Shown here: in pieces, positions 30,193 to 32,796 of the stretch
Layout: each line of letters starts with the position of its first letter
How positions within the stretch are numbered: the stretch's first letter is position 1
Origin: Bacilli bacterium
Lineage (GTDB): Bacteria; Bacillota_I; Bacilli_A; RFN20; CAG-826
DNA length: 64,000 nucleotides
Direction of reading: 5' to 3'
Assembly: GCA_024409055.1 (NCBI GenBank)
Contig: JAKSUL010000001.1
Span: 36,490 to 100,489 of the forward strand
Notes under the pieces: model-generated
What the model saw: only the letters and a program-made list of their open reading frames with translations
Database searches by the model: none
Told to the model about the DNA's origin: nothing
Position numbers and translations under genes: made by a program

Positions 30193-32796
30193 TTACGCTT
30201 CAACTTCCTTCATTAAAGCCTTGGCTTCCGCATCGGAATCGGCGGTAAGCTCGAGGAACAATTTCTCTAAATCGATGTGCTTGCTCTTCAAGGTCTTCAC
30301 CTGCTCGTGGGCAAGAACATCGCCTTTTTTAACGATGAACACTTCATCACAAAGGTTCTTAACGATGTCGATGATGTGGCTGGAGAAGAAAACGATATTT
30401 CCTTTCGCGGCATGCTGTCTCATCAACTCTTTGATTTGGAAAATAGAATTCGGGTCCAAACCGGTCATCGGCTCGTCCAAAATCCAAACGGCAGGTTCGT
30501 GAACCAAAGCCGCGATGATCGTGATCTTTTGTTTCATGCCGTGGCTATATGTTCTCATCGGCATATCGAAGCGTTCATTCATCTCAAGCTGATCAACCAA
30601 AGCAGGGACGCGGGCTTCGCGGTCCTCTTTTGAGACTTTGTACAAATCGGCGATATAAGAGATGTATTGGCGACCGGTAAGATTTTCGTAAAGAGCGTAG
30701 TTGTCAGGGACATAACCGATGCAAGATTTTGCACCGCTAGGATCTTTGGCGATATCATGGCCGCAAACGAGGATGGAGCCTTCGTTTATTCCATGGATGC
30801 CAACGATGGATTTGATGATGGTGGATTTACCGGCGCCATTCTTTCCTAAGAAGCCGTAGATCTTTCCACCGACGATATCCATATTGAAATTCGTGACCGC
30901 ATTTTTGGTCGCGTTACCATATCGTTTGGTCAATCCGACAATCTTGATTTCCGGGACATTGGTGTTTTCCATTGCTATTCCCTCCTTTGACATCTTTGCG
31001 TATATAGCCATCTTGGCTCTGATTTTTTCTTTTGCCGTCAATAAGGCGTCCGTCTCATCCACGATCTTGAATAAAAGTTCATAGACAAACCACATGGCCA
31101 ATGCGAAGGCACAGTAGAAAACATAATACACAAGCAGGTATAGGGCGTGGATTTTATACGTATACGTACCGTCTGAAAATTCGATTACAGGTTTATACAT
31201 AGCTTCGCCAAAGTTTCCGAGTTTATCGGCGATGAAGGTGGAGTTGATAAAGAAGAAGTCGATGGTTTGCCCATACGGAAGGCGAGGCTGGACAAAGTTG
31301 TTAACGAAGCCGACGGTTAAGTAATAAATGAGGAATCCACCCATGGAATAGAAGAAGTACTTTATCTTGGGACGCCCGTAAATGCCGAGGATAACGATCA
31401 AAACCGGCAAGAAGAAAGCGTAATAGTGGTTGATGTAGAACTCGACAATCGCAGGAGAAAAGATTCCGTGCGACGTGCTGTAATCGGGCATGAGCAAAGC
31501 AAAGGCGGCGCCGATGACATTGATGAACATCGTGAAGTAGAACAAAGGTGTCCATACAAACACCAAAGTCAAAGGCATCGTATACATCGCGGTGTTGCAA
31601 ATATGAAGCGGATAAGAAGTTATGGATGACCAAATATCGTAACGGAGGGTCGAAATATAGCTGACCAAAACCGAGTATGCGATAAAGCAAAGGAAGGCTC
31701 TTCTATGGAGCTTATCGAATCTAAACAAAACAAGGAAATACAAGATCGGAAGAGCGACGCAGACGCCAAGCAAAACACGATGGGTGGAATTTAAGTCAAT
31801 CGGAACGACGACGTAAATCGATTTTTCCCCGAAGAAATTAGATAAGGTGTAGCTGGTTATATTGAGGCAAACAAGCAAAACGGCGGCCAAAATAATTCCA
31901 TATCTTTCCTCTTCGCTGGTCTTAAAAGATGGATTCTCTTTCCAGAACCTCAAGCAAACGGCGAAATTAACGCCGAGTTCAAGACCCATCAGCAAAGCTC
32001 TCCAAGAGAACGAAGAAGTGCTGACCTGGCCAACCACTCCTTGAACAACAAGCGGGAAGAAGAAGATTTCAAGAATCAAAGTAGGTGTCACCACGAATTT
32101 GGAGATGCCACGGAAAACAGGAGTCGGGAAAAAGGAAGAGATAGCTACGAGAATCAAGCATCCGTTAGCGAGATAACCCACTATTGCTGAGATACCGACT
32201 TCAAACGGACTCATGAAGTCGCTTTGAAGATTCCTGACACCTTCAAGATAATCGCTTTCCGCAAAATAGAACCTTACGAAGAACAAGATGACGGCAAGTA
32301 GTCCAACCACTTTTCCGCAGGTTAAAACAAATTGCTCCTTCGTTGAAATGTTGAAGGTTCTATGGAACCAGATGTAAATCGGATTAGCGGGATTGCTCTT
32401 TTTGTCGACAAGCTTAAAAAGAAGCCTGACGGCAAGAGGAGCAAAGCAGACTATCAAAATTACAATGCAAACTGTCCAGTTAATGAAATTGCCCATCAAT
32501 ACCGCGGCGATGGCAACCACCAAATAGAAAGTAGTCAAAATGGTGACGGCCTTCTTTGACTTTGCTAATTTGGCTTCATCGCTTTCAGACGGGTATTGTT
32601 TCGTGTGCTTCTCCGCCAATTTTGGAGCCCACGAAGTAAGAAACATATAGGAAAGAAAGAGGGAAAGAACGAAGGTGATAGCGTAAATAAAAGCCTGGCC
32701 ATGCGCCCAAATAGAGGAAAAGGCGGCAAGCACAAGGCAGCCGCCTAAGGGCAATAAGCCCATTAGTTTTTGGTTGTTCTTTCCCTCTTCCTTCAT
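30193..32796 (-). CDS. fusion protein: N-terminal about 590-aa polytopic membrane domain + C-terminal ABC transporter ATP-binding domain
   Basis: 867-aa continuous ORF. C-terminal NBD has Walker A GKNGAGKST, Q-loop, signature-like YSHGMKQK, Walker B VWILDEP and H-loop SSHII. An internal MENTNVPEIKIVGLTKRYG looks like a free-standing NBD N-terminus, but no stop separates it from the membrane domain. Start TAATG overlaps the lipoprotein stop. Confidence 0.8.
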   Translation of the reverse strand: MKEEGKNNQKLMGLLPLGGCLVLAAFSSIWAHGQAFIYAITFVLSLFLSYMFLTSWAPKLAEKHTKQYPSESDEAKLAKSKKAVTILTTFYLVVAIAAVLMGNFINWTVCIVILIVCFAPLAVRLLFKLVDKKSNPANPIYIWFHRTFNISTKEQFVLTCGKVVGLLAVILFFVRFYFAESDYLEGVRNLQSDFMSPFEVGISAIVGYLANGCLILVAISSFFPTPVFRGISKFVVTPTLILEIFFFPLVVQGVVGQVSTSSFSWRALLMGLELGVNFAVCLRFWKENPSFKTSEEERYGIILAAVLLVCLNITSYTLSNFFGEKSIYVVVPIDLNSTHRVLLGVCVALPILYFLVLFRFDKLHRRAFLCFIAYSVLVSYISTLRYDIWSSITSYPLHICNTAMYTMPLTLVFVWTPLFYFTMFINVIGAAFALLMPDYSTSHGIFSPAIVEFYINHYYAFFLPVLIVILGIYGRPKIKYFFYSMGGFLIYYLTVGFVNNFVQPRLPYGQTIDFFFINSTFIADKLGNFGEAMYKPVIEFSDGTYTYKIHALYLLVYYVFYCAFALAMWFVYELLFKIVDETDALLTAKEKIRAKMAIYAKMSKEGIAMENTNVPEIKIVGLTKRYGNATKNAVTNFNMDIVGGKIYGFLGKNGAGKSTIIKSIVGIHGINEGSILVCGHDIAKDPSGAKSCIGYVPDNYALYENLTGRQYISYIADLYKVSKEDREARVPALVDQLEMNERFDMPMRTYSHGMKQKITIIAALVHEPAVWILDEPMTGLDPNSIFQIKELMRQHAAKGNIVFFSSHIIDIVKNLCDEVFIVKKGDVLAHEQVKTLKSKHIDLEKLFLELTADSDAEAKALMKEVEA

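Follow-up and report, generated by a model that had tools for sequence, protein, structure and literature searches.

A TMEM164/YwaF-type membrane domain fused to an ABC ATPase in a conserved operon of uncultured Bacillota, with a probable internal start for the free ATPase

The closest described relatives of the enzyme considered here are the proteins of the TMEM164/YwaF family (PF14808; ATGY superfamily, Reed et al.). The acyl thioester of human TMEM164 forms on Cys123, His181 is indispensable and lies 58 residues away on another core helix, and bacterial YwaF proteins carry Ser, Thr or Cys together with an invariant His (10.1101/2022.07.06.498872, PMC12830759). Another ATGY member, LhaT (YpjA, DUF1405) of Bacillus subtilis, N-acetylates lipoproteins extracellularly from acetyl-heptaprenylglycerol, a lipid-linked donor that must cross the membrane by an unknown flippase (PMC12345273). 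Lipoprotein N-acylation also occurs in Firmicutes and mollicutes, which have no Lnt homologue (PMC3850990). The stretch of DNA analysed here (the window) is 64,000 nucleotides long, comes from a Bacilli bacterium (contig JAKSUL010000001.1) and encodes on its minus strand an 867-amino acid (aa) protein in which a TMEM164/YwaF-type domain is fused to an ATP-binding cassette (ABC) ATPase. The domain shares with the TMEM164/YwaF family a 7-helix core and an invariant Cys and His at near-equal spacing, and acyl transfer through an acyl-Cys intermediate is the chemistry expected of it. Unlike the described family members, it is fused to an ABC ATPase and is preceded by a conserved 5-helix extension. 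LhaT resembles the fusion in superfamily and in being polytopic; the transfer from a lipid-linked donor to lipoproteins at the outer face is a property of LhaT. LhaT differs in belonging to another branch of the family, in being a stand-alone 6-helix protein and in having no ABC partner, and the window module is linked to lipoproteins by gene neighbourhood only.

Several known systems couple enzymes to ABC transporters. PCATs consist of a type I half-transporter, itself a membrane domain plus an ATPase, to which a soluble C39 peptidase is fused. They are like the window fusion in that an enzyme is covalently attached to an ABC transporter, coupling processing and transport, but the window fusion carries an integral-membrane acyltransferase on the ATPase alone and has a separate ABC-2-type permease. 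In EcsAB-RasP of Bacillus subtilis, an ABC-2-type transporter likewise works with an intramembrane enzyme, and EcsA (9a6w_B, RasP-EcsA model) is the best structural match of the window ATPase at 33% identity; however, RasP is an unfused site-2 protease and EcsB belongs to a different permease family. Lnt is a Cys-thioester acyltransferase that moves a phospholipid acyl chain to a lipoprotein, which is then handled by the LolCDE ABC machine. This Gram-negative pair is a functional analogy for the role proposed below but has no sequence or fold relation to the window proteins, since Lnt has a nitrilase fold, LolCDE is a type VII ABC transporter, and these are separate, unlinked proteins. No published description of YwaF-ABC fusions was found, and the relevant literature that names YwaF does not mention such fusions. 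The components come from known families, and their combination, the conserved operon and the probable internal start are undescribed.

The fusion gene (30193..32796, minus strand) is one unbroken open reading frame (ORF) of 867 aa in the ORF reading of the window. It encodes a variable N-terminus, the 5-helix extension, the YwaF/TMEM164-type domain, a stalk helix and the ABC ATPase. This confirms the continuous ORF described in an earlier, sequence-only reading of the window, which had also raised the possibility that an assembly error or a missing stop codon had joined two genes. Such an artefact, a lost stop or a frameshift, has in its favour the first impression that Met609 is a gene start and nothing beyond that. 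The ORF is continuous in 15 loci, namely the window and 14 others that were independently assembled in different projects. A search with the whole protein returned 71 clusters with both PF14808 and PF00005 (725-834 aa, identity down to 37%), and a search with the membrane part (aa 150-600) returned >100 further clusters, nearly all of them fused. The two ATPase-less proteins returned by the membrane-part search are both truncated, one of them (P0133) ending in the adapter-like sequence CLLYTSDAADE, so no genuine split orthologue was found in this search. The same fusion in all these clusters and loci means that the junction is real and not read-through. The artefact explanation is refuted, and its probability is practically nil.

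The architecture is common to ~170 protein clusters with identities down to ~30% and lowest pairwise values of 32-40%, and the PLHxC motif of the YwaF-type domain and the Walker A motif of the ATPase occur together in 168 retrieved proteins. The fusion genes of the 15 loci are mostly 35-60% identical among themselves. With the genome-collection matches included, the carriers are Bacilli, Clostridia (rumen), and metagenome-assembled genomes (MAGs) of Acholeplasmataceae and Candidatus Izimaplasma. The genome-collection scan used a family alignment and was keyed on the ATPase motifs; 76 of its 80 loci are generic ABC ATPases, and the true family members are L001-L004 only. Because so many low-identity clusters in several lineages share it, the fusion is, judged from its spread and divergence, an old and stable architecture of uncultured Bacillota, and the earlier suggestion of a relatively recent fusion does not hold. 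Database labels of family members are inconsistent. The 100% match to the fusion protein is named 'YwaF family protein [Bacilli bacterium]' at NCBI, and JGI labels members 'ABC-2 type transport system ATP-binding protein'. Two other proteins were noted among the matches. P0069 (903 aa) is family-like up to Walker A and then continues into unrelated sequence, which probably reflects chimeric assembly or disruption of the gene. P0104 (733 aa), from another lineage, has an Acyl_transf_3 (PF01757, OafA/YrhL-type) membrane acyltransferase N-terminal to an ABC ATPase, which suggests that acyltransferase-ATPase fusions arose more than once.

The AlphaFold model of the fusion (m3a6eec6008d4, built from 57 sequences) has a mean predicted local distance difference test score (pLDDT) of 83.6. 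It contains 12 confident helices between aa 153 and 576 and 2-4 low-confidence N-terminal helices, in agreement with the expectation of well over ten hydrophobic helices. The 7-helix TMEM164/YwaF-type (ATGY superfamily) acyltransferase domain occupies aa 336-576 (31069..31791, minus strand). PF14808 matches aa 338-527 over profile positions 5-193 of 217 with E 3.2e-15 and 56.7 bits against a gathering score of 25, and TIGR02206, 'TMEM164-related integral membrane acyltransferase', matches with E 1.8e-13. The guess of a YwaF/TMEM164-like family for residues 1-590 was therefore correct. R340, H398, C400, N426, H457, P464 and P476 are among the invariant core residues in the 57 sequences. The presumed nucleophile, Cys400, lies in His398-Ile399-Cys400 (31597..31605, minus strand) within a PLHxCN motif; His398 and Cys400 are invariant in 57/57 sequences, and the PLHxC part is found in the 168 family members. 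His457 (31426..31428, minus strand), invariant in the same 57 sequences, is the presumed partner in a Cys/His dyad. C400 is on the third and H457 on the fifth core helix with a spacing of 57 residues, a correspondence to TMEM164 that is drawn by position and motif and not by superposition. Among PDB sequences, the profile of the YwaF part found no match at E up to 10.

The orientation of the domain was predicted from the charges of its loops. K and R number 14 in 77 inside residues vs 6 in 128 outside residues, and in the predicted topology an outside loop immediately precedes Cys400, which is the outer end of its helix. Because the ATPase is cytoplasmic and the positive-inside rule is obeyed, the catalytic Cys is placed at the outer leaflet, and we infer from this model that the active site faces the outer membrane leaflet. 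On the other side of the membrane, the last core helix runs ~30 residues into the cytoplasm as one continuous modelled helix (551-604). This cytoplasmic stalk and a short flexible linker make up aa 577-608 (30973..31068, minus strand) of the model; the linker is disordered (pLDDT <50 at aa 606-610), and the stalk and linker sequence varies across the family.

The 5-transmembrane-helix extension, aa 151-335 (31792..32346, minus strand), is family-specific and was delimited from the model and from conservation. Its helices (153-177, 197-222, 226-255, 265-287 and 295-311) have pLDDT values of 80-97, R175, L190, G256 and E273 are conserved, and no Pfam family matches it. The possibility that the extension is a second YwaF repeat was rejected, as hhalign of aa 150-335 against aa 336-600 gave a probability of 0.7%. 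The N-terminal helices, aa 1-150 (32347..32796, minus strand), are poorly conserved according to the family alignment and pLDDT, which is <50 at aa 1-70 and 57-69 up to aa 140, and include an insertion of ~70 aa that the family alignment shows in the window protein only.

A membrane part followed by an ATPase is also the order of a half-transporter. The YwaF-like region could in that case be an enzymatically dead transmembrane domain and the 573-aa protein encoded next to the fusion a second, unrelated membrane subunit; besides the domain order, the JGI label fits this explanation. It is contradicted by the invariance of the His-x-Cys...His centre and of several polar intramembrane residues, which argues for retained catalysis, and by the membrane part having no likeness to any ABC membrane-domain family. 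The type I exporter membrane domain (PF00664, ABC_membrane) gives no match, the membrane part being YwaF-type with >=12 helices, and the judgement that this is not a canonical type I/II exporter domain stands. The 573-aa protein is itself assigned by homology to the ABC-2 permease clan and has two coupling-loop motifs, and its relatives pair with unfused ATPases that have no YwaF domain. A dead half-transporter is very improbable.

The C-terminal ~260 aa form a complete ABC ATPase (30193..30972, minus strand), as the sequence-only reading had claimed. Pfam ABC_tran (PF00005) matches aa 635-777 with E 8e-24, and the domain starts at aa 616 in the AlphaFold model. The best NCBIfam matches are DrrA/GldA-type ABC-2 ATPases (TIGR01188 drrA, E 3e-57, below an equivalog-type cutoff), and the nearest solved sequences are the ATPase domains of ABCA-type lipid transporters. 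Walker A (GKNGAGKST), Walker B (WILDEP, E775), the D-loop (TGLDP) and the H-loop (SSH, H807) are invariant in the 57 sequences. The signature is YSHGMKQK, in which the Ser and Gly of LSGGQ are kept, and the Q-loop position is occupied by Asp698 in VPD. Both are invariant and common to unfused homologues, so they represent a conserved variant and not decay.

Met609 (ATG at 30972-30970, minus strand) lies at the junction of linker and ATPase and is the internal Met that had been likened to the N-terminus of a stand-alone ATPase. The likeness is real, as Met609 coincides with the N-terminus of natural stand-alone ATPases, and the 259-aa product predicted from it aligns with them end to end at 40-48% identity. 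A Shine-Dalgarno (SD) motif, AAGGAGG (30981..30987, minus strand), is recognised from sequence and duplex energy 8 nt upstream of the ATG; the window DNA before the internal start reads AAAGGAGGGAATAGCA followed directly by ATG. When 14 gene starts of the window were compared, the duplex with the 16S rRNA tail was strongest at Met609 (-12.3 kcal/mol), and at the fusion's own start it has -5.9 kcal/mol. Met609 is present in 49/57 aligned sequences, and in most of the remainder a Met is displaced by one or two residues. A Met is found 33-58 residues upstream of Walker A in 166/168 members, with a sharp peak at -42, and in 41% of control windows. GGAGG-type motifs lie 7-9 nt before the same ATG in L001, L081, L083, L087 and L089, and other loci have similar motifs. 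The residues encoded by the motif differ among loci (KEG, QGG, NGG, RED and EKE), so it is the nucleotide motif itself that is conserved. SD energies of <=-6 kcal/mol occur in 11/15 loci and in 1.7% of 920 control windows, which are other windows of the same genes taken by the same selection procedure, and energies of <=-8 kcal/mol occur in 7/15 loci and in 0.1% of the controls. Because Met609 and the SD motif are conserved and the product equals stand-alone ATPases, the gene probably has two products, the full-length fusion and, from Met609, a free ATPase of 259 aa. An internal start would supply free ATPase and in this way address the puzzle over subunit stoichiometry that the sequence-only reading had raised.

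Some observations count against an internal start. The nominal binomial p of ~1e-17 for the SD enrichment overstates independence, as the 15 loci are related. The SD is weak or badly spaced in 4/15 loci, notably in the Clostridia-type L085. SD-like motifs within genes can also slow ribosomes or make them pause, an effect that is debated. It is thus conceivable that the SD motif and ATG do not form a start but are a leftover gene boundary or a programmed ribosome pause, the latter giving the 12-helix membrane part time for insertion before the ATPase is synthesised. Each permease would then receive two full-length fusions, and two tethered enzyme domains per complex are plausible because TMEM164 is a dimer. 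Conservation speaks against both versions. A leftover should decay at 32-60% identity, yet 99% of members retain the Met in a linker that is otherwise variable and disordered, and the nucleotide motif persists although the amino acids it encodes differ; the view of Met609 as a mere vestige of fusion is thereby contradicted. A pause site needs no in-frame ATG at 7-9 nt, and the window motif is stronger than that at any annotated start tested. The absence of an internal start is considered unlikely, and dual translation from the fusion gene remains the preferred reading. A promoter scan found sigma-70-like sites in no greater number than in shuffled sequence, and no internal promoter is claimed. 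The start of the fusion itself (32796, and those in L001, L004, L083 and L091-L093) often has little or no SD and abuts the upstream lipoprotein gene. With so poor an SD, the full-length protein may need translational coupling for its synthesis and may be made less efficiently than the internal product.

The gene that begins 2 nt past the fusion stop codon encodes the second polytopic protein noted beside the fusion, a permease of 573 aa with ~12 hydrophobic segments (28469..30190, minus strand). The window permease has no Pfam match at E <0.1, and its family profile has no match among PDB sequences. It is homologous to the partner permeases in all modules (24-49% identity, E 1e-31 to 1e-104); of 16 such partners, 4 match PF16949 and some others match ABC2_membrane (PF01061), ABC2_membrane_4 or ABC2_membrane_5, and precomputed matches of partners to 12TM_1 (PF09847) exist. 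Because a direct Pfam match is lacking, its membership of the ABC-2 clan, as a divergent PF16949/12TM_1-like protein, is by transitive homology only. The two halves share a loop motif, Y..S.(D/E)(N/G)....L..T.P, which we take to resemble the conserved cytoplasmic loop of ABC-2 permeases, and the hhalign repeat signal is weak (E 0.019). The permease appears to be a pseudo-dimer, and one permease probably offers two ATPase docking sites because both halves have the loop motif.

Pairs of an unfused DrrA-like ATPase and a homologous PF16949/12TM_1 permease occur in other Bacillota (L005, L007 and L091). Their stand-alone ATPases are those 40-48% identical to the window ATPase and have the same YSHGMKQK signature. 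Unlike the window module, these pairs have no YwaF domain, and no conserved lipoprotein or small-protein partners were seen with them. They presumably represent the ancestral two-gene transporter, and their existence indicates that the family arose when the ATPase of a pre-existing two-gene ABC-2 transporter acquired the enzyme module. In L091, the unfused pair (12109-14385; a 247-aa ABC ATPase and a 12TM_1/ABC_tran_2 permease) is located ~4 kb downstream of a fused module.

The fusion and permease are part of a string of tightly packed minus-strand genes, with overlaps or gaps of 1-4 nt, that encode a lipoprotein, the fusion, the permease, a small protein and a flavoprotein. The large lipoprotein (32796..35249, minus strand) has 817 aa counted from Met18 of an 834-aa ORF, which is the NCBI start in the 100% match P0121. 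The lipoprotein stop codon and the fusion ATG have 1 nt in common. It has a signal peptide with the lipobox LAAC (Cys24), N-terminal Ig-like domains and then a region that weakly resembles a beta-helix. The AlphaFold 2 model is poor (pLDDT 48, 9 homologues), and the family is small, with 57 representatives in 1.84 billion proteins; 44 relatives include six with Big_3, two with Big_2 and two with a weak Beta_helix match. The fourth module member is a small protein of 169 aa (27963..28472, minus strand), whose start codon shares bases with the stop codon of the permease gene. Its only hydrophobic segment, at the N-terminus, is the predicted membrane anchor and precedes a beta-rich domain outside the cytoplasm. 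All loci have a gene for a protein of 144-174 aa at this position, with homology detectable in closer relatives only.

All loci examined have the order lipoprotein-fusion-permease-small protein, or the lipoprotein downstream, with genes that overlap or abut. A large lipobox protein of 553 to >1960 aa, homologous or analogous to that of the window, adjoins the module in 16/16 cases. Its gene is immediately upstream in Bacilli-type loci, sometimes in two copies, and downstream in Clostridia-type and Acholeplasmataceae loci. The lipoproteins of other modules have different repeats. Because these families vary across modules, the constant partner is a large lipoprotein and not a particular enzymatic domain. 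In L004, an Acholeplasmataceae MAG, a >1960-aa lipoprotein with lipobox LAAC and 'TNGG...GY.F.GWY' repeats (~11860 to 17749, running off the locus end) comes right after the small-protein gene, in place of the beta-helix-like lipoprotein. The sequence-only picture of an ATPase tethered to an enzymatic membrane domain, with a separate permease, is backed by this evidence; the unit is larger than that reading allowed, which missed the four-gene module with its large lipoprotein and small anchored protein.

From sequence, model and gene context we lean towards the view that this conserved four-gene envelope module is an ABC-2-type transporter physically coupled to a membrane acyltransferase. By homology, the transporter would consist of one 12-helix pseudo-dimer permease that needs two copies of the DrrA/EcsA/ABCA-like ATPase, and any mix of tethered and free subunits could fill the two sites. 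The ~30-residue stalk and flexible linker would let a tethered ATPase dock on the neighbouring permease and keep the enzyme beside the transporter. By analogy with TMEM164, Cys400 would be acylated from a lipid donor, forming a thioester, and would hand the acyl chain to an acceptor at the outer membrane face. ATP-driven movement of a lipidic molecule by the permease might feed the acyltransferase with donor or acceptor, or clear its product. The most likely target, and the weakest step of the proposal, would be the lipid anchor or the N-terminus of the co-encoded lipoproteins. This target is preferred because every module has large lipoproteins, because LhaT/YpjA acylates lipoprotein N-termini, and because Firmicutes and mollicutes perform N-acylation despite having no Lnt homologue.

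Several points weigh against the coupled module. The TIGR02206 score of 50.4 bits is under the curated cutoff of 75; with PF14808 above and TIGR02206 below cutoff, the domain belongs to the Pfam family and falls outside the subfamily defined by NCBIfam. Glu106, which is critical in TMEM164 and belongs with His124 to its metal site, has no obvious equivalent on the matching helix of the fusion, and the metal site may therefore be different. The pseudo-dimer assignment draws on the weak hhalign match and the loop motif. The lipoprotein link is guilt by association, and the lipoproteins could be co-regulated surface enzymes or adhesins.

An alternative is a lipid-remodelling system in which lipoproteins are not the substrate. 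The YwaF domain would deacylate outer-leaflet lipids or transacylate them, for example from phospholipid to lysolipid or glycolipid in the manner of TMEM164, and the transporter would flip or expel substrate or product. The lipoprotein and the small anchored protein would then assist in binding or delivery, for instance of lipids scavenged from a host. Consistent with this alternative, glycerophospholipids are the substrates of TMEM164 and GPC1, ABCA phospholipid transporters are the nearest solved relatives of the ATPase by sequence, and members occur in Acholeplasmataceae and Izimaplasma-type organisms. The ABCA likeness, however, reflects the whole ABC-2/DrrA class and not a specific function, and lipid remodelling leaves unexplained why a large lipoprotein of varying family is the invariant partner. 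Genes for patatin-like phospholipases lie within ~4 kb of the module in 2/15 loci (L087, 3666-4916; L088, 3598-4854); they would fit lipid remodelling, but this neighbourhood is not conserved and may be chance. Lipid remodelling without a lipoprotein role is doubtful, and the transporter-coupled acyltransferase with a lipoprotein target is retained as the preferred reading.

A bolder version of the preferred reading can be formulated, in which the module by itself would remodel lipoprotein anchors and would be a candidate for the Lnt-less N-acylation of low-GC Gram-positives and mollicutes. The ABC-2 transporter would flip or present either the lipoprotein anchor or a lipid that donates the acyl chain, the TMEM164-like enzyme, tethered and facing outward, would acylate the co-encoded giant lipoproteins, and dual translation would set the number of enzyme copies per transporter. 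This extension is speculative and rather improbable as it stands.

Other features of the window surround the module. An HI0933-like flavoprotein of 374 aa, assigned by Pfam (26837..27961, minus strand), follows tightly behind it. This gene was rejected as a module member because it adjoins the module only in the window; it is three genes off in L081/L082 and absent from most other loci. Further downstream is a gene for a 336-aa protein with ~8 hydrophobic segments and no Pfam match (25711-26721, minus strand), and then a bidirectional terminator-like hairpin of 13-14 GC-rich bp with T-runs on both strands (25662-25694), identified by consensus scan only. This hairpin is the first strong terminator downstream of the minus-strand string and separates the convergent genes for the 336-aa membrane protein and an MscS-like protein. 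On the other side, genes for a DtxR-type iron repressor, a FeoA-like ORF and FeoB (35349-38319) adjoin the lipoprotein gene; these iron-gene neighbours recur in the closest relatives, L081 and L089, and not in distant ones. A tRNA scan found no tRNA genes in the window.

Human TMEM164 is an established lipid acyltransferase, whereas bacterial YwaF proteins are without a known substrate. The conserved operon, which ties the enzyme to both an ABC transporter and lipoproteins, gives the best indication from context to date of the role of this YwaF branch. The family offers a compact system for the question of how acyl donors and acceptors are supplied to outer-face enzymes, which is unresolved for the LhaT pathway (PMC12345273) and bears on lipoprotein N-acylation in Lnt-less Firmicutes and mollicutes (PMC3850990). 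It is equally a compact system in which the ATPase of an ABC transporter doubles as the anchor for a partner enzyme, and the conserved in-frame ribosome-binding site suggests a simple way of setting subunit stoichiometry. If the anchor-remodelling reading is true, the module would provide the first function for the bacterial YwaF family and the first ABC ATPase made both tethered and free from an internal start.

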